Source: an uncultured bacterium (lineage in GTDB: Bacteria > Auribacterota > JACPWU01). From it: a stretch of 32,000 nt of DNA. Shown one piece after another: positions 6,191 to 17,595 of this stretch. Made by a program: the position numbers and the translations under genes. The notes beneath the pieces were generated by a model. The model made no database searches, had not been told where the DNA came from, and saw nothing but the letters and a program-made list of their open reading frames with translations. The stretch covers positions 284,189 to 316,188 of the forward strand of contig CAZXEQ010000003.1 of the NCBI GenBank assembly GCA_964640155.1, read 5' to 3'. Position 1 is the stretch's first letter. Every line of letters begins with the position of its first letter.

Positions 6191-6264
6191 GCGCCCGTAG
6201 CTCATTCGGATAGAGCGATTGGCTTCGAACCAATAGGCAGCAGGTTCGATTCCTGCCGGGCGCA
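6191..6264 (+). tRNA. tRNA-Arg (anticodon UCG)
   Basis: Hand-folded cloverleaf: gcgcccg/ta/gctc-attcggata-gagc/g/attgg-cTTCGaa-ccaat/aggca/gcagg-ttcgatt-cctgc/cgggcgc/a. 74 nt, no encoded CCA. Confidence 0.88.
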
Positions 6265-6335
6265 CGAGTTTCGATAAAAAAGTCATAAACTAGTGGGAGT
6301 TGAGGGGGGAATAAAGTTTGGAATTTTATAATAAT

Positions 6336-6407
6336 GCCCCCATAGCTCAACGGATAGAGTACTAGCCTCCGGAGCTAGTGGTGCAGGTTCAATTCCTGCT
6401 GGGGGCA
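6336..6407 (+). tRNA. tRNA-Arg (anticodon CCG)
   Basis: Cloverleaf: gccccca/ta/gctc-aacggata-gagt/a/ctagc-ctCCGga-gctag/tggt/gcagg-ttcaatt-cctgc/tgggggc/a. 72 nt, no encoded CCA. Confidence 0.88.
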
Positions 6408-6438
6408 CGAAGCGCTATAATTACTTTTTTGCAAGGAG

Positions 6439-6460
6439 CAAAAGCTTCGAAGAAGTTTTG
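6439..6460 (+). repeat. Conserved tRNA leader box, copy 2 (caaaagcttcgaagaagttttg), ending 8 nt before tRNA-Arg(UCU)
   Basis: See 6162..6183. Confidence 0.8.
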
Positions 6461-6467
6461 ACATGAC

Positions 6468-6541
6468 GCGCCCGTAGCTCAGTTGGATAGAGCATCTGCC
6501 TTCTAAGCAGAGGGTCACAGGTTCGAATCCTGTCGGGCGCA
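6468..6541 (+). tRNA. tRNA-Arg (anticodon UCU)
   Basis: Cloverleaf: gcgcccg/ta/gctc-agttggata-gagc/a/tctgc-ctTCTaa-gcaga/gggtc/acagg-ttcgaat-cctgt/cgggcgc/a. 74 nt. The acceptor stem is identical to that of tRNA-Arg(UCG). Confidence 0.9.
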
Positions 6542-6596
6542 CGAATTTTTGAAAAAATGAGTGCCATAATCCTTACATTAACGAAAGGATTCGAAT

Positions 6597-6691
6597 GGAG
6601 GCGAGCGCCTCCTGTGGAGGAAAAGCGAGGGCGGGAGCCCGAACGAAAGCGAGCCGGCTGGCCGACCGAAGTCCCGAAGGGACGTAGGCGC
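6597..6691. other. GC-rich (about 70% G+C by hand count) structured insert of unknown nature, in a ~36% GC genome
   Basis: Local hairpins are visible: ggaggc-gagc-gcctcc (6597-6612), gtccc-gaa-gggac (6671-6683), and an upstream AT-rich hairpin aatcctt...aaggatt (6568-6591). The motifs gcgag and ccgaa recur. No ORF of meaningful size. Confidence 0.5.
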
Positions 6692-6709
6692 CGAATCCTG
6701 TCGGGCGCA
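6692..6709 (+). repeat. Orphan 18-nt copy of the tRNA-Arg(UCU) 3' end (T-loop to discriminator); att-like direct repeat
   Basis: cgaatcctgtcgggcgca at 6692-6709 is identical to 6524-6541 inside tRNA-Arg(UCU). No matching 5' acceptor strand or T-stem partner lies upstream, so this is not a complete tRNA. Confidence 0.85.
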
Positions 6710-6774
6710 AAAATTTAGAGTGTAGAGCTAGTGCATAGTATTAGAGTTAAAGCAGAGTTTTTCTCTATTTTGAC

Positions 6775-6852
6775 GGTGGGTGTAGCTCAGCTGGTTAGAG
6801 CGTCTGACTGTGGCTCAGAAGGCCGGGGGTTCAAGTCCCCTCACTCACCCCA
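6775..6852 (+). tRNA. tRNA-His (anticodon GUG), with the extra G-1 and an encoded CCA
   Basis: g(-1)/gtgggtg/ta/gctc-agctggtta-gagc/g/tctga-ctGTGgc-tcaga/aggcc/ggggg-ttcaagt-cccct/cactcac/c/cca. G-1 and discriminator C73 are bacterial tRNA-His identity marks. Confidence 0.9.
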
Positions 6853-6920
6853 AGATTTTTTAAGATAAATCAGATAAGATTTTATGTAGTATAGTAGTGG
6901 TTTTAGCAATAGGAGATACA

Positions 6921-7526
6921 ATGAAACTTAAGTTCTTAAATATTCTAGTGGTTTTTATGCTGAGCTTTATAGAGGTTCAATTAAATGCAGATGAATCAAC
7001 TCAGACTCTTAAGAAGTTGGTTTCTAAACTTAAAGAATTTGAACATTTGGCGCTTGATTTTAAGGATGCTGTAGATATAGGAGAATTGAAAACAGTAAAA
7101 AATCTTTGTTTTAAATTATCTCGATATACAGGGCTTAGCACAGACCTTAATAAAATTGCGGGGCAAATAGAAAAATCACAAGTAGAAGTTCAAAAAATAA
7201 ATACTGAATTAGATGATTACAAAGCTCAAATGGCACAACTACAAGCTAAAAATCAGGAATATGAAAGTCAATTGCAAGAGACTCAGTCCAAGCTTAGCCA
7301 GGCAGAGTTAGATTTATCAACGTGTCGCTCTCAAATGACTTCGTCTCAGGGTAGTGAAAGTAGTTTAAGATTTCAGATTCAAGATTTGAGATCTCAACTT
7401 GATCGCATGCAGAGCAACTACATGAATTGTCAAACAAACCTGTCAAATGCACAGATGGATTTGAAGAATTATCAGGATAAGTCTTCGAATGCCGGAGCTT
7501 CTGCTTCAGAAAAAAGTTTGTCCTAA
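6921..7526 (+). CDS. Secreted Q/S-rich coiled-coil protein, function unknown
   Basis: ATG 6921 follows TAGGAGATACA. The signal-peptide-like N-terminus is MKLKFLNILVVFMLSFIEVQLNA. It is followed by heptad-like Q/L/E/S-rich sequence (QLQAKNQEYESQLQETQSKLSQAELDL...). I recognise no family. Confidence 0.6.
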   Translation: MKLKFLNILVVFMLSFIEVQLNADESTQTLKKLVSKLKEFEHLALDFKDAVDIGELKTVKNLCFKLSRYTGLSTDLNKIAGQIEKSQVEVQKINTELDDYKAQMAQLQAKNQEYESQLQETQSKLSQAELDLSTCRSQMTSSQGSESSLRFQIQDLRSQLDRMQSNYMNCQTNLSNAQMDLKNYQDKSSNAGASASEKSLS

Positions 7527-7555
7527 AATTAATCTATTATATAAATGTAAAAAGA

Positions 7556-7584
7556 TTGATTTGCCTGATTTTTTTCGTTATAAT
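7556..7584 (+). promoter_or_regulatory. Near-consensus sigma70-type promoter (TTGATT - 17 nt - TATAAT)
   Basis: TTGATT at 7556-7561, a 17-nt spacer, and TATAAT at 7579-7584, about 85 nt upstream of the EIIA-like ATG at 7670. Confidence 0.6.
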
Positions 7585-7669
7585 CCCTCTTGCTTAGTGT
7601 TTCATTCTTCTTTCTAAGTTTAGGGAATCATCTAGAGAGTCCATATGATTGGCTTTCAGGAGGGGAGAA

Positions 7670-8134
7670 ATGGCAAAAACTACGGAAATACGTCTAAGCA
7701 AGATGCTTTCAGAAGAAAGAGTTGTTGATCTTATTTCGTCAAAGAAAGATAGTGTCATCAAAGAACTTACCCAAGTGATGAGTACCTCCAAAGCTGTAGG
7801 GCATAAGATAAATTTTTATAAAGCCATTGTCGAAAGAGAGAAAATTGTTAGTACGGGAATTGGTATGGGGATTGCCATACCTCATGCAAAAGAGGAAAGT
7901 GTTTCTGATTTTGTTCTAGCGATTGGGCGTAGGCCTGAAGGGCTTGATTTTGAATCTTTAGATGGTCAACCAGCACAACTTATTTTTATGGTTGCTGCGC
8001 CTAATAAACAAAATGACGATTTTCTTCGTGTTTTATCAAAAATAGTTCTTGTTCTTAAGAATCAGAAATTTCGAAAAAAAATTTTAGAGGCTAGATCTCC
8101 TTCCGAAGTAGTGCAACTCTTTAAGGATAAGTAA
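7670..8134 (+). CDS. PTS EIIA type-2 domain protein (PtsN / EIIA-Ntr-like regulator)
   Basis: Family layout: LSEERVVDL...KDSVIKELTQVM...AIVEREKIVSTGIGMGIAIPHAK (phospho-His site)...LIFMVAAP...FLRVLSKIV. ATG 7670 follows CAGGAGGGGAG. Confidence 0.82.
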   Translation: MAKTTEIRLSKMLSEERVVDLISSKKDSVIKELTQVMSTSKAVGHKINFYKAIVEREKIVSTGIGMGIAIPHAKEESVSDFVLAIGRRPEGLDFESLDGQPAQLIFMVAAPNKQNDDFLRVLSKIVLVLKNQKFRKKILEARSPSEVVQLFKDK

Positions 8135-8478
8135 TGACTAAAAATGAATGTTTTCTCTTAATCGTTTCTGTTTATCAGGATAAGTGCTCCGAAGATGTTT
8201 TGGTTGCTTTGACGGAAAGCGGTGTTAAAGATGTTATGACTTTGACGGGAGCCAATGAAACAAGACGTCTTCCTCAAAATATTCCTCTCTTCGCAGGATT
8301 TAAAAATAGCCTGGGTAAGACGTCTCCTATGAGTAAAATATTTTTGGGAGTTGTTAATGATCCAGAAGTTCCCAAAGCAGTTTTAGCAAATCTTAAACAT
8401 GCGGATATTGATTTTTTGGGAGAAGATTTAGGGGCTATTCTTTTGCTGCCATTGCATACAGCTCATTTACCTTCATAG
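8134..8478 (+). CDS. Small hypothetical protein with a possible PII-like (beta-alpha-beta x2) fold
   Basis: 114 aa. Its start overlaps the EIIA stop (TAATG). The pattern FLLIVSVY..SEDVLVALTESGVKDVMTLTG / long loop / KIFLGVV..PKAVLANLK / AILLLPL resembles PII/ferredoxin-like topology. This is inference only. Confidence 0.45.
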   Translation: MTKNECFLLIVSVYQDKCSEDVLVALTESGVKDVMTLTGANETRRLPQNIPLFAGFKNSLGKTSPMSKIFLGVVNDPEVPKAVLANLKHADIDFLGEDLGAILLLPLHTAHLPS

Positions 8479-8480
8479 CG

Positions 8481-9578
8481 TCAATTCTTAGCTTCAAATA
8501 CACCTTCACTTAAGTATTGATCAGTAGTTTCTGCATCAGGAAAGTCATACCCTAGTCCTTTGCGCCAAACCTCGCTTGATTCCATGCATAAATACATGGG
8601 GACAATACCACCACAATCACGAATCCACCTGGATATTTTGCGATACATTTCCAAGCGTATCATTTTGAGATAACGAAGTTTCCCATCTGTCCCTGGGATA
8701 AATTCTTCATAGAGATAACTACTTTTGGGGAATTTTTCTTGAGCAATTTCTTTAAGATTCCCTAAAAGTCTTAATCCTCCCAAACTGATCCATTTGATTT
8801 GTTTGGGTCGAATGTGTTTGAAAAGGGATTGAATCAGCTCTTGATAATCTTGTTCCCATTCAGGGTAAAAGAGCAGAGGCTCTAAATGAAAACTTAAAGG
8901 ATAGCCCCATTCTTGACAAATACGAGCTGCCGCAAGTCTTTCTTCAATGTTAGGTGTTTTTAATTCTTCTTGATGTGCCATTTTTTTTGTGTTTAAAGAC
9001 CAAGAAACAATGGTTCGTCCTTGATGATCTAGATCTTGTAGGTTTTCAATTTGAATGGATTTCGTTTTAAGTTCAATACACGCTTTTTGAGTTTTTGCGA
9101 AGAAGGGGACAACATATTTAGAAAATTCAGTGATATGGTCGTGAGAAAGACTATCACTCAATTCACCTGTTCCAATGCGAAATTGTGTTTTAGGGCTTGT
9201 TGAGAAAATGCCTTCCAGCTCATTAAACATGTCATTCAAATTTGCATAAATGATGAGAGGAGGGCTATTGAGATAGCTTTGAAGCACACAATAAGTACAT
9301 TCATAATTACAATTACTTGCCGATTCTAGAATGAAATACCCGCAACATAAGGAATCTTTTGCCCCCGGGCACGCTTTTAAGAAATGACCTTTTTGTTTTG
9401 CAATGACAAGTACTTCTTTGCCTTGTTTATCTGTAAGTGAAGAGAATTGACTTTCTAAAGGTCCAGTGAAGTATTGAGGAGTCAAATGAGGTAGATTTTT
9501 AATCACACTTTGAGTGAGGGGTTCATTTAAAACAGATTCTTCGATAAATAGAGATTTAGGAGAGTATGATTTCGCCAT
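8481..9578 (-). CDS. Radical SAM protein, spore-photoproduct-lyase (SPL) family
   Basis: CX3CX2C cluster motif CNYECTYC. The overall layout parallels B. subtilis SplB as I recall it: FIEESVLNEPL ~ YIEPRALEYPL; LVIAKQKGHFLK ~ LVIGVRKTLKF; WGYPLSFHLEPLLFYPEWEQDY ~ AGYPLGFIVAPIYIHEGWEEGY. Confidence 0.8.
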   Translation of the reverse strand: MAKSYSPKSLFIEESVLNEPLTQSVIKNLPHLTPQYFTGPLESQFSSLTDKQGKEVLVIAKQKGHFLKACPGAKDSLCCGYFILESASNCNYECTYCVLQSYLNSPPLIIYANLNDMFNELEGIFSTSPKTQFRIGTGELSDSLSHDHITEFSKYVVPFFAKTQKACIELKTKSIQIENLQDLDHQGRTIVSWSLNTKKMAHQEELKTPNIEERLAAARICQEWGYPLSFHLEPLLFYPEWEQDYQELIQSLFKHIRPKQIKWISLGGLRLLGNLKEIAQEKFPKSSYLYEEFIPGTDGKLRYLKMIRLEMYRKISRWIRDCGGIVPMYLCMESSEVWRKGLGYDFPDAETTDQYLSEGVFEAKN

Positions 9579-10548
9579 CTTCAGCCGTGAGTTTAAAAAG
9601 GTTATTGATATGTTCTTTTAAGTTTTCTTTGTTGAGTAATTCAAGACCTGCTTCATATTCATGCATATTTTTGAAGCGGAATTGTATCAGATAGTCTGTT
9701 GTTTCGAAATAGGGAGGATTTTGAAGTTGAAGCTGAGGAGGCAATTTAAGTTCTTTTTTTATGTTTTTAAATTCTTCTTCTAACTGTGATAAACGGGGAA
9801 ATCGTATTTTACGAAGTTCTAACTCGAGACGAGACCATTTTTGCGACGATGTCCAGGTGGGCTGGATCAAAATCTCTTTTAAATTAGGTTGTTCAAATAG
9901 TTTTGAAGGTTCTAGCCCCGTTTTTTTGAAAATTTCCCAACATAATTCCAAAAATAATTTTTGAGGGTTCATTCCCATTTTTAAATCGTGAATAATACCT
10001 AGAAGAATTTTTTGGTCTATCTCTGAAAATTTCAGTAAACGTCCAGCACTATCAACCTGGAGAATTCCTTTGGAAACAAAGTCTTTCGCTTGAGAAGATA
10101 ATTTTTGTAGCGAAAGAAATTCATGAAACATGCTTTCTTTGATAGGCAAGTCAAGAAGCGGAAAACAATCTTTTAATATCTTTTCCAAAGAGATTTTAAA
10201 TCGATTTTGTAAGAGAGTTAAAACATTTGATTTTTCGATGGGATTTAACTTTCTTGTAGCAAGATTTTCTAAGAGTTGGATTTTTAGACCATCTAACTCG
10301 GAGATTTCATCTTTTTCATAAACAATCACAGGAAGATTTTGTTTTGGATTAAGTTCATAAGCAATCTGAATTCTTCTGTTTCCCGTAATGAGGATGTATT
10401 CCGATGCGGATTGCATGATTTGTGGGTAATGTGTTACTCCAATGCTTTGAATCGATTCTTTGAGCTCGCCAGGAATAGAACCGTAATTGAAGTTAAAAGG
10501 AGTTTTGATCTGTATTAATTCAGTTAAAGAAAGAGATGCGATTTTCAT
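9556..10548 (-). CDS. ParB N-terminal (ParB/Srx) domain protein with a novel ~200-aa C-terminal region
   Basis: ELKESIQSIGVTHYPQIM...YILITGNRRIQIAYEL (GxRR arginine patch) and KLNPIEKSNVL (start of the ParB HTH region). No ParA is adjacent. Overlaps the upstream GT2 by 4 nt (ATGA) and the downstream SPL gene by 23 nt. Confidence 0.7.
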   Translation of the reverse strand: MKIASLSLTELIQIKTPFNFNYGSIPGELKESIQSIGVTHYPQIMQSASEYILITGNRRIQIAYELNPKQNLPVIVYEKDEISELDGLKIQLLENLATRKLNPIEKSNVLTLLQNRFKISLEKILKDCFPLLDLPIKESMFHEFLSLQKLSSQAKDFVSKGILQVDSAGRLLKFSEIDQKILLGIIHDLKMGMNPQKLFLELCWEIFKKTGLEPSKLFEQPNLKEILIQPTWTSSQKWSRLELELRKIRFPRLSQLEEEFKNIKKELKLPPQLQLQNPPYFETTDYLIQFRFKNMHEYEAGLELLNKENLKEHINNLFKLTAEDGEIILS

Positions 10549-11372
10549 AAAAGGCTTTTTTCTAATTTTTCAGATTTAAGTTGATATTCAGCATACTCTT
10601 GCATTCTATCTCTTTTAAGGCAACCCTGCGCATAGATTTTACTTTTTTCTTTAATCTGTTCTTCAACCGCTGTTTTCTGACAAAGAGTTATCTTAGGATC
10701 TAAAATAATTTTTTCAAGAGCTTGTACACGAAATTTATCCATTCCAAAGAACTTTTTTGAAAGCTGGTCTGAATGTCCCCCTCTTTTAATGATAAGGGGC
10801 TCAGGGATGAAATGAACGGGGTAATGGAGGGTGCTTCTGAGCCATAAGTCATAGTCTTCACAGGCAGGAAGTGTTTCATCAAAGAGCCCTATTTTTTCAA
10901 AAACACTTCTATGAATCATCACAGAAGAAGGACTGATGAGACATAATTCTAAACATCTTTCAAAAATCCATCCTCCAGATTTTTGATGGCGTTTACCTTG
11001 ATTAACCCGTTTTCCATTTCTAATCCAAACTTCTTCTGTGTGAAAAATAAAAATTTCAGGATATTCTTGAGCAACCTGAAGTTGAATGAATAGCTTCTCA
11101 GGCTTCCATAAATCATCTGAATCAAGAAAGCAGATCCATTCACTTGTTGCTATTTTAAGTCCTGTATTTCTTGCTGAACTTACTCCTTGATTGTTTTGAT
11201 GAATATAAATAATCTCTGGAAATAATCTTATGATTTCAGCAGTATGATCAGTAGATCCATCATCCACTACAATGATTTCATGAGGAAATCGTTTTTGATT
11301 GAATACAGATTCGAGTGCTTCTTTTAGAAAATCTGCTCGATTGTAGGTTGGAATGATAAGGCTTGTTTTCAT
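10545..11372 (-). CDS. Glycosyltransferase family 2
   Basis: N-terminal SLIIPTYNRADFLKEALESVFNQ, VVDDGSTDHT, and the DxD-type motif FLDSDD. GT-A fold signatures. Confidence 0.85.
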   Translation of the reverse strand: MKTSLIIPTYNRADFLKEALESVFNQKRFPHEIIVVDDGSTDHTAEIIRLFPEIIYIHQNNQGVSSARNTGLKIATSEWICFLDSDDLWKPEKLFIQLQVAQEYPEIFIFHTEEVWIRNGKRVNQGKRHQKSGGWIFERCLELCLISPSSVMIHRSVFEKIGLFDETLPACEDYDLWLRSTLHYPVHFIPEPLIIKRGGHSDQLSKKFFGMDKFRVQALEKIILDPKITLCQKTAVEEQIKEKSKIYAQGCLKRDRMQEYAEYQLKSEKLEKSLL

Positions 11373-11556
11373 AGTTATGAATTGATTTTAATGGATGTTG
11401 ATTCTTAAGTTTTTTAGTGGCTTATTATAGGGATTAACGATGCTCAAGAAAAGGGGGTTTTAAATTTATTAAAGCGCTGTTATTTTCTTGCCAATATACA
11501 AGATGTTGTGGTAACTTTTCGTTAAATCCACTGAATGTAGTATGTAAGGGGGGTGT

Positions 11557-14500
11557 ATGTACTTAAAAAAACTGGAACTTCTTGGTTTTAAATCATTTGC
11601 AGACAAAACGGTTATTGATCTAGAATCAGGCGTTACGGCCATTATTGGGCCCAATGGGTGCGGAAAAAGCAATGTTGGAGATGCACTTAGATGGGTTTTT
11701 GGTGAGCAAAATCCTCGTATTTTGCGTGGAACTCAGATGGAAGATGTTATTTTCAATGGAACCGATATCCGTAAAGCCATTGGACGTGCAGAAGTTTCTG
11801 TAACTTTTATCAATGACGATAAAGCCCTCCCTGTTGATTATCATGAGGTGACTATAACCCGCCGATTATTTCGATCTGGAGAAAGTCAATATTTGTTGAA
11901 TCAGACTCCTTGTCTTTTGCGCGATATTCGTGAACTTTTTATGGGGACAGGTATTGGAACTAATGCGTACTTCTTTCTTGAACAGGGAAGAATTGACATG
12001 GTTTTGAGTGCAAAGCCAGAAGATCGTCGCGCTGTTTTTGAAGAAGCAGCAGGGATTATGAAGTTTAAGGTTAAAAAGAAAGCTTCTCTTCAAAGATTAG
12101 AATCGACAGATGCTAATTTAATTCGTCTTGCAGATATTATTCGTGAAGTAAAACGTCAAATTATTTCTTTAGAGCGCCAAGCAGGGAAGGCGCGGCGTTA
12201 TCAAGAAGCACGAGATGAGTTAAAACAATTAGAGTTAAAAGTTTCACGCGTTGAATTTGAAGAGCGTTCCAAAGAGTTTGAACAAAGGATTCAAGAATTA
12301 GAAAAGGGAACGCAATTAAAAGATTCTCTTCAATCAGAAGTAGGGATTTTAGAGGCAAAAATTGAAGAGGTTGAAAAAAGTCATCAGGCTATTTTTGATG
12401 AACTTCACCAGCTAGAAAAACAAGACTTAGATCTTTATCATCGCATTGAAACAGCAACGGGTGAGGTGCAGCTTTTAAAAGAAAGACTTTCTGAGTTTGA
12501 AACACGACTTGTTTCGGATGGGCAAGATATTGAACAGGCTCGAAAAAGGCTAGATGAATTAAAAAATCAATTGGTGACCGAAGAGGAAAATAGAAATAAA
12601 TTTCATGATTCCTATAAAGATCAAAAAGCACAACTTCAGCAAAAGAAAACAGGTCTTGAGGATGTGGTGAGACTTTTTGAACAAAGTCAAGAGGGCTTGA
12701 ATTCAGCTAAAGCCCAGTTGATTGATTTAAAGCAACAAGAAGCACAATTTAATAATCAACTCATGGTGCAACATCATCGTCAAAAAGATTTGGTATTAAG
12801 ACAAGAAAAATTAATTACTGAGCAAGAAAAGTTAGCGCTTCATATTAAAGAAAAAGAGAATGAAAAAGCTCAATGTCAAACTAATAACACGAGTGTAGAT
12901 CAAGAAGTTGAAGCTGCTCGCCAAAATTTGAAATCATGTCTTGAAGAAAAGGAAAAAATTGAGTCCGAATTGCTTGCATTTTCTCAAGCGCTAGAAAAGG
13001 AAAAAGAAAAACTTTTAACCAATACGGCTCGCCGTCAGGTCGCCATGGAATTTGGCGCTCTTTCAACATCATCGAATTTTTCAGGCGTGGATACTCTTGT
13101 TCATGCGGTGATGGAAATCCCTCATCAGTATCAAAAGGCTATGAAGGCATGTTTGGGGATTAAACTAGGAGCTATTATCAAAGAAAATCGAAATTTGATT
13201 GAAAGAAGAAATCAGTCTGTTTTTCTTGCGCTGGATGCACAAGTTCAAACCACTGTTGCTGAAAGTCTTTCGTCTCTTCCAGGCTTCATTGGCTATGCAT
13301 CAGAACTTGTTCGGTACTCTGATAAATACCGTAATGCTGTACGGGCTTTATTGAAAGATTTGGTGATTATTCGTGATTTTGAATCATTGAAACAAATTGA
13401 TAATCAGTGGCTAGGTCGTTTTCGTTTTGTAACTTTAGAAGGTGATTTTATTGATTATGATGGAACTTGGTCTTTCAATGGAATTTCAGAAGAAGCCCCT
13501 TTGGATTTTGCTTCACTTGAAAGCGAAATTAATGCATCTACTCAGAAGATGAAAGAAATTCAGTTGTTGAAAACTCCCGTAGAAAGCAAATTATTGAAGT
13601 TAAAAGAAACTTTAGTTCAGGCTCAAAGTCTTTTAAGAACCAAGGAGCTTGAATTAGCCAATGTGGGGGGACATCTGGAAAGATTGGTAGGAAAAGCGAA
13701 AGACCTCGAAGAAGAAAATTGGAGTTTACTAAAAGAAAAAGAAGATCTTGAAAAGGAAATGACAGAATTGGGAGTGATGATCAGTCATATTTCTGAAAAT
13801 CTGGCTTCTGTTTTAGAGAAAAGTAAGAACTTATCCTTTCAGATTGAAGAAAAAGAAAAAGAAGTGACGAGTTTGTCTGAGCAAAAAGAAGCGGCTTTGG
13901 TGGAATTGGCTGAAGTCAAAGTGTTGAGTCGCTCTATTGAGGAAGAAGAAAAACGTTTTCAAACTAGAATTTCAGAGCTGCAAGAGGCTTTTCAAGAAGC
14001 AGAAAGGCTTATCACAAAGCGTGCAGAAGATGTTTTGAGTAACACAAAAAAGAAAGAAGAAAGTCAGCTTAGATTACAAAATCTTACAGAGGAAATTACT
14101 CGTCGCACAGAAGAGCGAGAAGCCTCAAAGAAAAAAAGTTTAGAAATAGCCCAGCAAGTCGAAGGTATTACAAAAAGCCTTCAGTTGGATAGAGAAACAT
14201 TGGGTCGTCAAATTCAAGAGCTTGCTCGATTAAGAGAAGAAATTTCTAATCTTGAGATTAAAAAAGCTCAAGCTGAAATTCAGAAGCAAAATATTGCACA
14301 AAGAATGAAAGAAAAATACGAGATTGATTTATCTACAATTCCTTTGGAGATAGAAGGTTTTGTTTTGGGAGATGTTCAGCAGAAGATCGTAGAGCTTCAA
14401 GAAAAACTTCGCCAAATGGGAGAAGTAAATTTGGTTGCTATTCAAGAGTATGATGAACATAAATCTCGCTATGAATTTTTGATGAAACAACAAGAAGATT

Positions 14501-15051
14501 TGGTTAACTCCAAAGAAGATTTAGTTCGAGCGATTCAGAAGATAAATGCAACGACAAAAGAGATGTTTGTAGAAACGTTTCAAAAAATTCAAGGTACATT
14601 TAACGAGCTTTTCAGGAAGCTTTTTGGTGGAGGTCGAGCGGTTCTTCAATTGACGGACGAAGGGGATGTTTTAGAGTGTGGAATTGAAATCTCTGCACAG
14701 CCCACCGGAAAAAAATTGCAGGCTATTTCACTTCTATCGGGGGGTGAGAGGACTTTAACGGCGGTTGCTTTGCTTTTGGCTATTTTTAAGGTTCGCCCAA
14801 GTCCCTTTTGCATGATGGATGAAATGGACGCGGCTTTGGATGAATCTAATATTTTGAGATTCCTTTCTCTCTTGGATGATTTCAAAGCTATGACACAATT
14901 TATTCTTATTACCCATAATAAGAGAACGATTGGTGTTGCAGATATTATCTATGGCGTGACGATGGAAGAGTCCGGAGTTTCTAAGCTTGTTTCCATTCGT
15001 ATGGCAAAGGATAAAGAAAAGACAGAGGATGCTGCACTTGTTGCAGGGTGA
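11557..15051 (+). CDS. smc: Chromosome segregation protein SMC
   Basis: 1164 aa. N-terminal KLELLGFKSFADKT...GPNGCGKSN (Walker A), long coiled coils with a central hinge, and C-terminal LSGGERTLTAVALLLAIF (signature) plus FCMMDEMDAALD (Walker B). Confidence 0.95.
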   Translation: MYLKKLELLGFKSFADKTVIDLESGVTAIIGPNGCGKSNVGDALRWVFGEQNPRILRGTQMEDVIFNGTDIRKAIGRAEVSVTFINDDKALPVDYHEVTITRRLFRSGESQYLLNQTPCLLRDIRELFMGTGIGTNAYFFLEQGRIDMVLSAKPEDRRAVFEEAAGIMKFKVKKKASLQRLESTDANLIRLADIIREVKRQIISLERQAGKARRYQEARDELKQLELKVSRVEFEERSKEFEQRIQELEKGTQLKDSLQSEVGILEAKIEEVEKSHQAIFDELHQLEKQDLDLYHRIETATGEVQLLKERLSEFETRLVSDGQDIEQARKRLDELKNQLVTEEENRNKFHDSYKDQKAQLQQKKTGLEDVVRLFEQSQEGLNSAKAQLIDLKQQEAQFNNQLMVQHHRQKDLVLRQEKLITEQEKLALHIKEKENEKAQCQTNNTSVDQEVEAARQNLKSCLEEKEKIESELLAFSQALEKEKEKLLTNTARRQVAMEFGALSTSSNFSGVDTLVHAVMEIPHQYQKAMKACLGIKLGAIIKENRNLIERRNQSVFLALDAQVQTTVAESLSSLPGFIGYASELVRYSDKYRNAVRALLKDLVIIRDFESLKQIDNQWLGRFRFVTLEGDFIDYDGTWSFNGISEEAPLDFASLESEINASTQKMKEIQLLKTPVESKLLKLKETLVQAQSLLRTKELELANVGGHLERLVGKAKDLEEENWSLLKEKEDLEKEMTELGVMISHISENLASVLEKSKNLSFQIEEKEKEVTSLSEQKEAALVELAEVKVLSRSIEEEEKRFQTRISELQEAFQEAERLITKRAEDVLSNTKKKEESQLRLQNLTEEITRRTEEREASKKKSLEIAQQVEGITKSLQLDRETLGRQIQELARLREEISNLEIKKAQAEIQKQNIAQRMKEKYEIDLSTIPLEIEGFVLGDVQQKIVELQEKLRQMGEVNLVAIQEYDEHKSRYEFLMKQQEDLVNSKEDLVRAIQKINATTKEMFVETFQKIQGTFNELFRKLFGGGRAVLQLTDEGDVLECGIEISAQPTGKKLQAISLLSGGERTLTAVALLLAIFKVRPSPFCMMDEMDAALDESNILRFLSLLDDFKAMTQFILITHNKRTIGVADIIYGVTMEESGVSKLVSIRMAKDKEKTEDAALVAG

Positions 15052-15063
15052 TAGTATTGAATC

Positions 15064-17595
15064 ATGACTCGTCAAAAAATATCCATCCGTGGTGCGCGAG
15101 AACATTTCTTAAAAAACATCAATTTAGATTTACCCCTCCATGAATTAATCGTCGTTACGGGTGTCAGTGGTTCAGGCAAATCCTCTCTTGTGGTTGATAC
15201 GCTTTATCAAGAAGGTCGCAGGCGATATTTAGATTTTGTTTCGGAAGATATGCGGGGCTGGATAGGGGATATTTCTAAACCTGATGTGGATTCTATTGAA
15301 GGGCTTCCCCCTGTTTTTCTTGCGGGACAAGACCGTTCAAAAATAAACAAACGCTCGACGGTTGGAACGCTTGTTGAAGTTCAAGATCTCTTAAGACTTC
15401 TTTTTTCTCGAATCGGAGATATTTTTTGTTATCACTGTCAGAAAAAGCTTAAACGCTATACTTCTCATGAGATTGTTAATGAGCTCTTGAGTCAATTTGA
15501 GAACGAATCTTTTCTTGTATTAGCACCTGTTGCTTCAGAAACATCTCTAGATCGATGGAGAAAAGAAGGATTTGTAAGAGCCCGAATTGATGGAAGAAAC
15601 TTTGATTTAAATGAACCAGAAATTCCTACAGGCAAAGATGTTGAAATTGTTGTTGATCGAATCCTCATCAAACGGCAAGAACGTGCACGTTTAACAGAAT
15701 CTGTTGAAATGGCATTGAAATACGGGAGTGGAGTCGTTCATTTCTTTTCTGAAAATCTTTCTAAAAACTTATTTTTTTCGAATGATTATCGCTGTTTAGA
15801 CTGTCAGCTTCTTTTTGGAAATCTTCCGCCTTCCTCGTTTTCATTTAATAGTCCATATGGAGCGTGTGAACGTTGTCATGGGTTGGGTTTGATGACAGCG
15901 AATAGCAAAGCTACTATGCCTACTTGGCAGTACCGGTCCTCTAAAATATCAATCAAAGGTACTGAATCTGAAAAAGTATGTTCCATGTGTGATGGAAAAC
16001 GTCTAAATCCAGAGGCTTTAGCTGTTCGTTTGGGAGATTGTAATATTTTTGAGCTAGGAGAAAAAAATATTCAAAGTCTCCTGATTTTTTTTAAAGAATT
16101 TAAACCTGGGGGAGAGTTTCAATTTAAGATTTGGAAAGAAATTTCTAAAAAGATTATTGAACGATTAAATCTTCTAATAGAAATGGGGCTTGCTTATCTT
16201 TCTTTGAATCGCAGGGCAACGACTTTATCGTCAGGGGAACTTCAGCGAGTAAGATTAACTTCTCATATGGCTTCGGGGTTGGTGGAGGTAGTTTATATTT
16301 TAGATGAACCTACCTTAGGTTTGCACCCAAGAGAAATCAATCTTTTATTAAAAATTCTATTTAAAGTACGTGATCAGGGGAATACGGTTATTGTGATTGA
16401 ACATGATGAAACTGTGATTCGCTGTGCTGACAAAATTGTAGAATTGGGAGTTGGGGCAGGGCCTGATGGAGGAATGATTGTTGTTGAAGGCTCAATAAAT
16501 AATATCCTTGCTTGCCCACAATCTTTAACCAGGCGTCTTCTTAGAAACTCCATTGAAATGGGCATGTCCCAGCAGGAAGTGAAACCTAAAGTATTTCTAG
16601 AGATTCAAGGGGCTTGTGTCAATAATCTAAAATCAATCAATGTTCAAATACCGCTTGGAGTTTTTTGTTGCATTACGGGAGTGTCAGGTTCGGGTAAAAG
16701 CAGTCTTGTTTATGATGTAGTGGTTAAATTATTGAACCCAAAGATAAAATCTTCAGAAAAGAAAAAACTTTGTAAGGGTATACAGGGACAAGAGCAAATA
16801 GATCAATGCATTGTTGTTGATGCTATTGAAATGGGAAGAAGCCCACGTTCAATTACGGCAACCTATAGTAATGTTTTTGATGAAATTCGAGAGCTTTTCA
16901 CAAAAGGTTCTGAAAGTCGGATGCGAGGGTATACAAAAGATCGATTCAGTTTTAATGTAAAAGGAGGTCGGTGTGAAGCATGTTTGGGTCAAGGCATTCG
17001 TCAAGTTGAGATGACGTTTTTACCTGATTTTGAGATGTCTTGCGATGTTTGTTTGGGAGAGCGTTATAATCCAGAGACATTGGAAGTGAAATTTAAGGGT
17101 AAAAATATTGCTGAAGTTTTGAAAATGACGGTTCAAGAAGCAGTTGATTTTTTTAAAAATATTCCTGGTGTCAGCCGCAAGTTAGAACCTTTGATTGAGT
17201 TGGGCTTGGGATATTTAGCTCTTGGACAAAGCGCGTTTAGTTTTTCGGGCGGAGAAGCTCAGAGACTAAAATTAGCTGTTTTTCTTGCAAAACAAACAAA
17301 AAGACACACACTTTTTGTTTTTGATGAACCTACCCGAGGGCTTCACTTGGCCGATATTGCTTCTTTGATGAAAATTCTATTTCGGCTGAGAGATGAAGGA
17401 CATTCGGTGTTGGTGATTGAGCATCATTTGGCCGTGATTGAACAAGCAGATCATGTGATTGATTTGGGGCCTGGAGCAGGTGAAGAGGGAGGAACTATTA
17501 TTGCTCAAGGATCGCCGCAAGCCATTGCTCAGGAGAAAAAATCTATAACAGGGTCTTTTTTGAAGTCGCGATGGCAGGCTCTTAGGAAGACTTAG
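15064..17595 (+). CDS. uvrA: Excinuclease ABC subunit A (UvrA), short form
   Basis: Two ABC modules (GVSGSGKSSL twice; LSSGELQR / FSGGEAQR; ILDEPT / VFDEPT). Cys4 modules are CYHC..CLDC, CERC..CSMC and CEAC..CDVC. 843 aa versus about 940 for canonical UvrA. Confidence 0.9.
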   Translation: MTRQKISIRGAREHFLKNINLDLPLHELIVVTGVSGSGKSSLVVDTLYQEGRRRYLDFVSEDMRGWIGDISKPDVDSIEGLPPVFLAGQDRSKINKRSTVGTLVEVQDLLRLLFSRIGDIFCYHCQKKLKRYTSHEIVNELLSQFENESFLVLAPVASETSLDRWRKEGFVRARIDGRNFDLNEPEIPTGKDVEIVVDRILIKRQERARLTESVEMALKYGSGVVHFFSENLSKNLFFSNDYRCLDCQLLFGNLPPSSFSFNSPYGACERCHGLGLMTANSKATMPTWQYRSSKISIKGTESEKVCSMCDGKRLNPEALAVRLGDCNIFELGEKNIQSLLIFFKEFKPGGEFQFKIWKEISKKIIERLNLLIEMGLAYLSLNRRATTLSSGELQRVRLTSHMASGLVEVVYILDEPTLGLHPREINLLLKILFKVRDQGNTVIVIEHDETVIRCADKIVELGVGAGPDGGMIVVEGSINNILACPQSLTRRLLRNSIEMGMSQQEVKPKVFLEIQGACVNNLKSINVQIPLGVFCCITGVSGSGKSSLVYDVVVKLLNPKIKSSEKKKLCKGIQGQEQIDQCIVVDAIEMGRSPRSITATYSNVFDEIRELFTKGSESRMRGYTKDRFSFNVKGGRCEACLGQGIRQVEMTFLPDFEMSCDVCLGERYNPETLEVKFKGKNIAEVLKMTVQEAVDFFKNIPGVSRKLEPLIELGLGYLALGQSAFSFSGGEAQRLKLAVFLAKQTKRHTLFVFDEPTRGLHLADIASLMKILFRLRDEGHSVLVIEHHLAVIEQADHVIDLGPGAGEEGGTIIAQGSPQAIAQEKKSITGSFLKSRWQALRKT

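Follow-up and report, generated by a model that had tools for sequence, protein, structure and literature searches.

Thymine dioxygenases of phages (5mYOX) need a cognate ParB homologue, which activates them on double-stranded DNA (dsDNA; PMC13229309), and phage enzymes of the GT-A fold glycosylate DNA bases, with ParB annotations co-occurring with the dioxygenase (bioRxiv 10.1101/2023.12.21.572611). Orphan proteins with the ParB-CTPase fold are broadly distributed (PMC12704722), and SplB-like genes of COG1533, which encode radical S-adenosylmethionine (SAM) enzymes of the spore photoproduct lyase (SPL) family, are found under LexA control in the SOS regulons of non-sporulating phyla (PMC8565304, PMC3765255). 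Here we describe a cellular locus in which such proteins come together: three minus-strand genes in a 32-kb stretch of contig CAZXEQ010000003.1 from an uncultured bacterium (the whole stretch is called the window, and gene coordinates are counted in its positions), encoding a family 2 glycosyltransferase (GT2) of the GT-A fold, a ParB-family protein without a ParA partner and an SPL-fold radical-SAM enzyme. The linkage of the trio is real and old, and we tentatively propose that it serves a single chromosomal pathway directed at DNA.

The phage 5mYOX pathways are the closest in logic, as an analogy only. In both cases a ParB homologue would be combined with an enzyme for pyrimidines in dsDNA and with a glycosyltransferase (GT-A or GT-B in the phages), a combination that is here predicted from the genes. 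Unlike the phage enzymes, which are Fe(II)/2-oxoglutarate (2OG) dioxygenases, the enzyme of our locus is an SPL-fold radical-SAM protein; the phage ParBs are without the helix-turn-helix (HTH) domain that the ParB-like protein carries; and the module belongs to cellular chromosomes and is missing from viral collections. No TET/JBP-type Fe(II)/2OG dioxygenase domain was seen among the annotated open reading frames (ORFs) of the window or the recurrent neighbours in related loci. The SOS-linked SplB-like "photolyases" share with our enzyme the SPL-family radical-SAM assignment, occurrence in non-spore-formers and a presumed action on DNA, but their partners are ImuB-C, DUF4130 or a uracil-DNA glycosylase, which occur in none of the 80 loci that we collected, and a ParB or GT2 partner is not mentioned for them (PMC3765255, PMC8565304). 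DndB and DpdB are likewise ParB-superfamily proteins encoded beside DNA-modifying enzymes; in contrast to them, our module has no Dnd or Dpd components nearby and no PADLOC match, and its ParB-like protein is much nearer to true ParB and Noc, HTH domain included, than to proteins of the DndB type. An earlier annotation of this DNA, made from its letters and ORFs alone (the sequence-only reading), knew of no described system with this composition, and our full-text literature searches likewise found no paper describing the ParB, SPL-like and GT2 combination; the main text of a survey of ParB-CTPases (PMC12704722) does not mention radical SAM, SPL or glycosyltransferases.

Linkage of the three genes

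The GT2 gene (10545-11372, minus strand, 275 aa) is followed by the gene of the ParB-family protein (9556-10548, minus strand, 330 aa) and by that of the SPL-fold enzyme (8481-9578, minus strand, 365 aa), as taken from the ORF list and the reverse-strand sequence. By direct reading, the stop of the GT2 gene and the start of the ParB-like gene share an ATGA (10545-10548, minus strand), and the 3' end of the ParB-like gene (TAA, 9556-9558) overlaps the start of the SPL-like gene (ATG, 9576-9578) by 23 nt (9556-9578, minus strand), an overlap that is also present in the related loci L003 and L005. The arrangement thus stands as the sequence-only reading had given it, with the three ORFs and both overlaps in place, and the motifs that it quoted (ITGNRRIQIAYEL, LNPIEKSNVL and CNYECTYC) are present.

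That reading had set beforehand, as the test of a system, whether the genes co-occur beyond close relatives, and they do so in many phyla, both as a pair and as a trio. In a first search, all three contigs that were looked up had an SPL-family gene immediately downstream of the ParB-like gene, even where, as in one of them, the ParB-like protein was just 29% identical to the query, and in one Chlamydiae metagenome-assembled genome (MAG) with unrelated flanks a GT2 gene was also found upstream of the ParB-like gene. For a larger sample we took 80 loci, the best of at least 593 matches to an alignment of the SPL-like clade in bacterial assemblies chosen at one genome per species, and scanned their ORFs with hidden Markov models (HMMs) built from the three families. 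The usable set comprised 69 loci with at least 2 kb upstream, their SPL-like proteins being 40-82% identical; the fractions describe this SPL-like clade, not all SPL-family genes, and the sampling is phylogenetically uneven.

The full trio was found in 20 of the 69 loci, the ParB-like and SPL-like genes with no GT2 nearby in 31, GT2 and SPL-like without ParB-like in 6, and the SPL-like gene without either partner adjacent in 12, so that in this clade it is not mostly a solitary gene, which the sequence-only reading would have counted against a system. A ParB-like gene therefore lies directly upstream of, and co-directional with, the SPL-like gene in 51/69 loci, and an orthologous GT2 is adjacent in 26/69. 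The order is invariably GT2, ParB-like, SPL-like on a single strand, the flanking genes vary by lineage, and in about 39 of 58 related loci (starts called mechanically) the ParB-like stop and the SPL-like start overlap or are separated by no more than 40 nt. Trios carry the labels Chlamydiae, Cytophagia, Desulfobacterota/Thermodesulfobacteriota, Pseudomonadota and Binatia; the ParB-SPL pair occurs additionally in Acidobacteriota, KSB1, Deferribacteres, Clostridia and Neomarinimicrobiota, and the GT2-SPL pair in Omnitrophota and Desulfobulbaceae. By their record labels the carriers belong mostly to anaerobic lineages. Compared across loci, the GT2 proteins have a mean identity of 53%, the SPL-like proteins one of 45% and the ParB-like proteins one of 29%, and the pairwise distances of the partners correlate, with a Pearson coefficient of 0.89 for both pairs. 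A reverse look-up of divergent ParB-like members showed no adjacent SPL gene in two of three.

The sequence-only reading had left it between a GT2 that is functionally linked and one that is an unrelated passenger, and here the linked GT2 prevails over the passenger. The GT2s linked to the SPL-like gene form one orthologous clade (28 loci, at least 300 bits), which is also found beside SPL-like genes without a ParB-like gene, while the sole other GT2 in the examined loci scored 79 bits. The identity of the window protein as a GT2 was upheld by its match to PF00535 (E=1e-36, 126.8 bits, cutoff 23.3); it carries DSDD (DxD) and EDYD motifs and a helical C-terminal extension of ~70 aa. All of its matches to NCBIfam equivalogs were far below the cutoffs, and its best matches were chondroitin synthase, TarP and PglI.

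The ParB-like protein and the SPL-fold enzyme

Taken alone, the ParB-like protein of the window is below Pfam detection, and its matches to TIGR00180 parB_part (3.7e-7, 30 bits, cutoff 58) and to Noc are sub-threshold. The family profile, however, picks up ParB, Noc and Spo0J chains of solved structure with E-values between 1e-23 and 1e-16 (1e-23 for the ParB of Myxococcus xanthus, and 1e-23 to 1e-22 for this ParB together with Noc and Spo0J), and of 48 family members 40 have PF02195 and 20 the ParB HTH domain PF17762, which bears out the ParB N-terminal domain that had been proposed for this protein. The AlphaFold 2 (AF2) model (pLDDT 92.8, pTM 0.83) is matched in Foldseek by CTP-bound M. xanthus ParB, B. 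subtilis ParB, Noc and KorB (8qa9). A word-indexed search returned few close homologues; an exhaustive profile search found 1150 clusters at 50% identity with E<=1e-30, and among the 150 matches listed all were ~320 aa long and matched the ParB-like profile over their full length. The label "orphan" given to the protein by the sequence-only reading is therefore right in that it has no ParA and wrong in that it belongs to a large family.

The nucleotide-binding domain at the N-terminus (residues ~1-100; 10249-10548, minus strand) aligns to the GERR and ENLQR motifs of M. xanthus ParB: its GNRR motif is G56-R59 at 10372-10383 (compare ITGNRRIQIAYEL), and its ENLATR contains N95 and R99. Across the family G56, R59, N95, R99 and E105 show no or almost no variation, R58 is also conserved, and so are the GxRR and [DE]NLxxR motifs. 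With these motifs and the fold match, it is likely that the ParB-like protein binds nucleotide. A ParB/Noc-type HTH DNA-binding domain follows (residues ~101-230; 9859-10248, minus strand), with an HMM alignment that runs through profile positions 200-231 and a Foldseek match to the Noc DNA-binding domain 6y93 at a target TM of 0.77-0.82. The remainder is a family-specific C-terminal domain (residues ~231-330; 9559-9858, minus strand; pLDDT 80-97), modelled as a helical hairpin, two strands and two helices, with the motifs RxPxLS, LKLPP and PPxFE and conserved R249, P251, E257, P270/P271 and E282. For these last ~100 aa no counterpart was seen in Pfam, PDB or BFVD, so that of the ~200-aa C-terminal region that the earlier annotation had found unrecognisable, this part has remained so, while residues ~100-230 turned out to be the ParB/Noc HTH region.

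Like the CTP-dependent clamps ParB, Noc and KorB, the protein thus has an N-domain with GxRR and [DE]NLxxR followed by a ParB-type HTH domain. It differs from them in that the C-terminal dimerisation domain is replaced by the new ~100-aa domain (the canonical PF23552 had no match in any family member examined), in that no parS was found, and in that its neighbours are radical-SAM and GT2 genes, not segregation genes. We saw no ParA-type ATPase either in the annotated ORFs of the 32-kb window or in the recurrent neighbours in related loci, and no plasmid homologue matched at 1e-5. A plasmid or chromosome partition ParB, an identity that would have spoken against a system, was rejected for want of a ParA, of the canonical C-terminal domain and of plasmid relatives.

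For the third protein, the SPL-like layout and the CX3CX2C cluster noticed at the start were both confirmed. It passes only the broad Pfam family PF20903 (E=8.9e-31, 107 bits, cutoff 27), scoring 116 bits against the SPL equivalog TIGR04070 (cutoff 400) and 64 bits against TIGR03886 (cutoff 437), and its AF2 model (pLDDT 84.5) matches the SPL of Geobacillus thermodenitrificans (Gt; 4fhc/4fhf) in Foldseek with TM 0.74-0.81 over ~350 columns at E=5e-24, the next radical-SAM structure following at E=6e-4. Residues were mapped by HMMER and hhalign against Gt, Bacillus and Clostridium SplB, with reference to the structure paper (PMC3467042) and to 84 clade members; an alignment by sequence left the C-terminus unaligned, and hhalign against Bacillus SplB resolved the hairpin, not Tyr339.

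With SplB (4FHC-4FHG, TIGR04070) the protein shares the radical-SAM fold over ~350 residues including the N-terminal domain, the cluster motif C90-x3-C94-x2-C97 (CNYECTYC; 9288-9311, minus strand), whose cysteines are invariant in 84/84 sequences, as well as Tyr96, the SAM contacts S194 and K173 (Gt S195 and K174), the contacts to the bridging phosphate R270 and K300 (Gt R273 and K309; PMC3467042) and perhaps a cysteine in the loop of the clostridial H-donor. Identity to SplB, on the other hand, is just 22-25%, and the base pocket is altered. The position of SPL Tyr98 is Val98 in the window protein (codon 9285-9287) and mostly Ile or Val in the 84 clade members (I 40, V 26, Y 15, F 2); the H-donor position of Gt Cys140 (Bacillus Cys141) is an invariant Glu139; the Gt base contact R193 is S/A192, and E268 falls within an SPL-only insertion; and the hairpin tip R304/Y305 aligns to x-D298, the RY pair being lost. 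What the clade has in addition is C331, C221 and a cysteine-rich loop, C70...C78-C79 (KACPGAKDSLCCGY; 9342-9371, minus strand), with a CC-containing insertion of 6-7 residues relative to SPL. In the 84 sequences C70 is present in 82, C78 in 81, C79 in 84, C331 in 83 and C221 in 73, and two alignments place C70 at Gt Ser76 and clostridial SPL Cys77, whereas a third is shifted by one residue (PMC3467042). SplA and a sporulating host are both lacking here, and the enzyme has the ParB-like protein and GT2 as its partners.

The altered base contacts, the loss of Tyr98 and Cys140 and the four extra near-invariant cysteines together argue that this is not a true SP lyase, an identity that was rejected on the equivalog score, position 98, the base contacts and the hairpin tip. 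The pattern of kept and lost residues suggests that the enzyme continues to act on a nucleotide flipped out within a phosphodiester context, though not on spore photoproduct, and the added cysteines may provide an auxiliary Fe-S or thiol site. Pro295 of the PGxDGK hairpin (codon 8694-8696) is found in 47/58 loci with an adjacent ParB-like gene versus 3/19 without, and Tyr at position 98 occurs mainly in ParB-SPL loci without GT2 (13/37); these patterns may track the partners and are a lead only, since phylogeny confounds them. The isoelectric points of the three families were not discriminating.

Modification, repair or another function

Our preferred reading, which accounts for all three genes, is one chromosomal DNA-directed pathway, in which an oxygen-independent, ParB-assisted modification of pyrimidines would end in glycosylation; we give it a probability of roughly 0.35. 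We infer DNA as the substrate, a recruiting role for the ParB-like protein and all of the chemistry, as follows. The ParB-family protein would load on duplex DNA as a nucleotide-gated clamp and would recruit or activate the SPL-fold radical-SAM enzyme, co-produced with it by translational coupling, a role for which the ParB-dependent thymine dioxygenases of phages offer the analogy (PMC13229309). The radical-SAM enzyme would flip a pyrimidine out of the duplex, and its 5'-deoxyadenosyl radical would abstract a hydrogen atom, with C70, C78, C79 and C331 possibly forming an auxiliary Fe-S or redox site; the different base pocket and the extra cysteines point to another pyrimidine transformation, not the splitting of spore photoproduct. 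GT2 would then transfer a sugar to the product, and the net result would be a post-replicative, oxygen-independent hypermodification of DNA bases, the anaerobic counterpart of the phage set of ParB, thymine dioxygenase and GT-A enzyme. The mostly anaerobic hosts fit a radical-SAM route that replaces an O2-dependent one. In a more specific form, which we consider doubtful, the product would be a glycosylated, base-J-like pyrimidine in bacterial chromosomes: the C5-methyl or C6 of thymine would be activated, GT2 would add the sugar, and the ParB clamp would set the location by loading and spreading, giving a housekeeping, epigenetic-type mark in many anaerobic phyla.

Several observations weigh against a modification pathway. 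The usual acceptors of GT2 enzymes are lipid-linked or protein, and the absence of a GT2 near 31/69 loci with the ParB-like and SPL-like genes implies that glycosylation is not obligatory or that the GT2 is encoded elsewhere. Scanning 8000-11800 for inverted repeats that could form a parS-like site or operator gave only two weak palindromes, and a palindrome census over all loci found none that was shared. At the positions of the M. xanthus hydrolysis residues Q52 and E93 the window protein has H and N, the family being H/N and variable there, so that by alignment the hydrolysis residues are not conserved, and the nucleotide specificity of ParB proteins is unpredictable from sequence or AlphaFold 3 (PMC12704722). 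None of the three proteins matched PADLOC models at E<=0.01, no nuclease, reader or restriction partner is linked to the module, and housekeeping contexts are unusual for a bacterial DNA hypermodification system. Finally, the conserved Cys70, if it does sit in the clostridial H-donor loop as the alignments suggest, fits a lyase or repair enzyme better.

The last two points fit DNA repair, a possibility that we rate as nearly as likely as modification. The SPL-like protein would then be a light-independent radical-SAM lyase for a pyrimidine lesion in non-sporulating cells, such as an SP-like, cross-linked or saturated pyrimidine dimer, perhaps from dehydrated or condensed DNA; the ParB-like clamp would slide and deliver or stimulate the enzyme, and GT2 would be accessory or unrelated. 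The whole SPL fold is kept with its SAM and phosphate contacts, the near-invariant Cys70 appears to sit in the loop where clostridial SPLs have their H-donor cysteine (PMC3467042), 15/84 members still have Tyr98, and SplB-like COG1533 genes do occur in the SOS regulons of several non-sporulating phyla (PMC8565304, PMC3765255), although those genes have other partners and may lie outside this clade. The context is also housekeeping, neither mobile nor defensive, and in some lineages the genes are syntenic with UvrD/PcrA, SSB, DEDDh exonuclease or SMC/UvrA-like genes. The only matches of the SPL-like protein in plasmid and phage collections were to true splB, at ~24% identity, a viral-contig scan did not find the SPL-like clade, PHROGs gave generic ParB and glycosyltransferase matches only, and a phage search with GT2 gave generic GT2 matches only. 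A repair lyase would have to do without the SP base-binding residues, the hairpin tip and, with Ile or Val in most members, Tyr98, and it leaves unexplained a linked GT2 clade that is found in 26/69 loci, has a mean identity of 53% and also occurs without the ParB-like gene. We know of no ParB-type clamp in lesion repair, which counts against it further.

A function away from DNA appears unlikely. The ParB-like protein could in that case be a KorB-like nucleotide-gated regulator or an NTP-using enzyme of the Srx/ParB fold, and the SPL-like protein and GT2 could make or modify a glycoconjugate, a nucleotide-sugar or RNA. KorB is indeed a ParB-family repressor, with 8qa9 among the fold matches, but the position of the ParB-like gene between two enzyme genes, with overlaps, suggests stoichiometric co-production, not a regulator, and no operator-like palindrome is conserved at the loci. 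ParB/Srx folds do include kinases and sulfiredoxin, and such matches were weak. Normal GT2 acceptors are not DNA, the best matches being chondroitin synthase, TarP and PglI, and a glycoside hydrolase family 57 (GH57) glucan enzyme adjoins the block in Desulfobacterota; GH57, however, is limited to one lineage, and the only protein structurally close to the radical-SAM enzyme acts on DNA, its phosphate-binding residues being kept as R270 and K300. A lineage-specific coincidence of gene order, without any common function, is for practical purposes excluded as the source of the adjacency, because order and orientation recur in many phyla amid unrelated flanks, each partner, GT2 and ParB-like, comes from its own specific orthologous clade and partner distances correlate (0.89), even though all three superfamilies are common and tight packing is normal in small genomes.

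Surroundings of the module and its significance

The window resembles a low-GC (~36%) chromosome segment carrying housekeeping genes, among them acs, a tRNA cluster, a ptsN-like EIIA gene, smc, a uvrA-like gene, tolQ/tolR/tonB, guaB, guaA and dnaE, and the nearest homologues carry Chlamydiae MAG labels. Four clustered tRNA genes (Arg-TCG, Arg-CCG, Arg-TCT and His-GTG; 6191-6852, plus strand) account for a local rise in GC. Behind the SPL-like gene, a plus-strand block at 6897-8478 encodes a coiled-coil protein of 209 aa, hydrophobic at its N-terminus and weakly matched by type III secretion SPAM/YscO, then the PtsN-like EIIA (7649-8134, plus strand) and, with a start that overlaps the EIIA stop by 1 nt, a 114-aa ORF without a family (8134-8478); L003 has these three genes behind its SPL-like gene too. 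On the other side, a 184-bp intergenic region (11373-11556) separates the GT2 gene from the divergent smc and is presumed, from its position, to hold the operon promoter; in a promoter and terminator scan of the operon, including sigma-70, sites were no commoner than in shuffled sequence. The GT2 gene is divergent from smc both here and in L005, from a second Chlamydiae genome whose proteins are 48-70% identical to those of the window, and the flanks differ in L001, a third Chlamydiae locus, where an unrelated Y1_Tnp gene (9016-9960) lies downstream. The smc gene (11557-15051) is directly followed by a UvrA-like gene (15064-17595, plus strand), whose 843-aa product has a UvrA interaction domain and two ABC ATPase halves, falls short of the length of canonical UvrA and may represent a paralogue of it. 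In other bacteria canonical ParB loads SMC, and the adjacency to smc may or may not have a meaning for the ParB-like module.

Other neighbours of the related loci are specific to lineages. In the Desulfobacterota trio loci L016, L027, L033, L036, L039, L044 and L067, a lysine-rich Rho_N (HeH) protein of ~113 aa is encoded directly upstream of GT2, usually preceded by the GH57 glucan enzyme, and it could be a fourth, lineage-specific member that binds nucleic acid. Behind the SPL-like gene of Desulfobacterales and Syntrophobacterales comes an SNase-family nuclease whose N-terminus is hydrophobic and whose tail is Cys-rich, and in three loci a PAS-DEDDh exonuclease lies ahead of it; in about 11 Acidobacteriota loci a UvrD/PcrA helicase and a tetratricopeptide repeat (TPR) protein are encoded divergently upstream (the loci listed for these three kinds of neighbour are L054, L055, L058-L060, L069, L070, L074, L078, L080 and L083). 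An SSB gene is among the DNA-related neighbours as well, as are smc and the uvrA-like gene in two Chlamydiae loci; all of these may be plain synteny. Three Desulfobacterota loci have genes resembling IS200/Y1 transposases a short way downstream of the SPL-like gene (L036, 3634-4194; L039, 7047-7598; L052, 7095-7673).

All three superfamilies are known, and a ParB partner for a DNA-base enzyme has its precedent in phages; what appears to be undescribed is the composition of the module, the new C-terminal domain of the ParB-like protein, the changes in the active site of the SPL fold and how broadly the module is distributed. If the module acts on DNA as proposed, it would provide the first example from cells, outside phages, of a ParB-type nucleotide switch that cooperates with a DNA-base enzyme, as well as a second reaction for the SPL radical-SAM fold, and the GT2 could be the first in bacteria that is directed at DNA. 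The more conservative outcome, a repair lyase that is assisted by ParB, needs no light and acts on a lesion other than spore photoproduct, would be new as well. Since the ParB-like family is so large and the module is spread across many little-studied, mostly anaerobic phyla, one biochemical study would annotate thousands of genes, and it would bear on the question of how anaerobes could carry out the C5 chemistry of pyrimidines that aerobes and phages perform with the O2-dependent TET/JBP enzymes.

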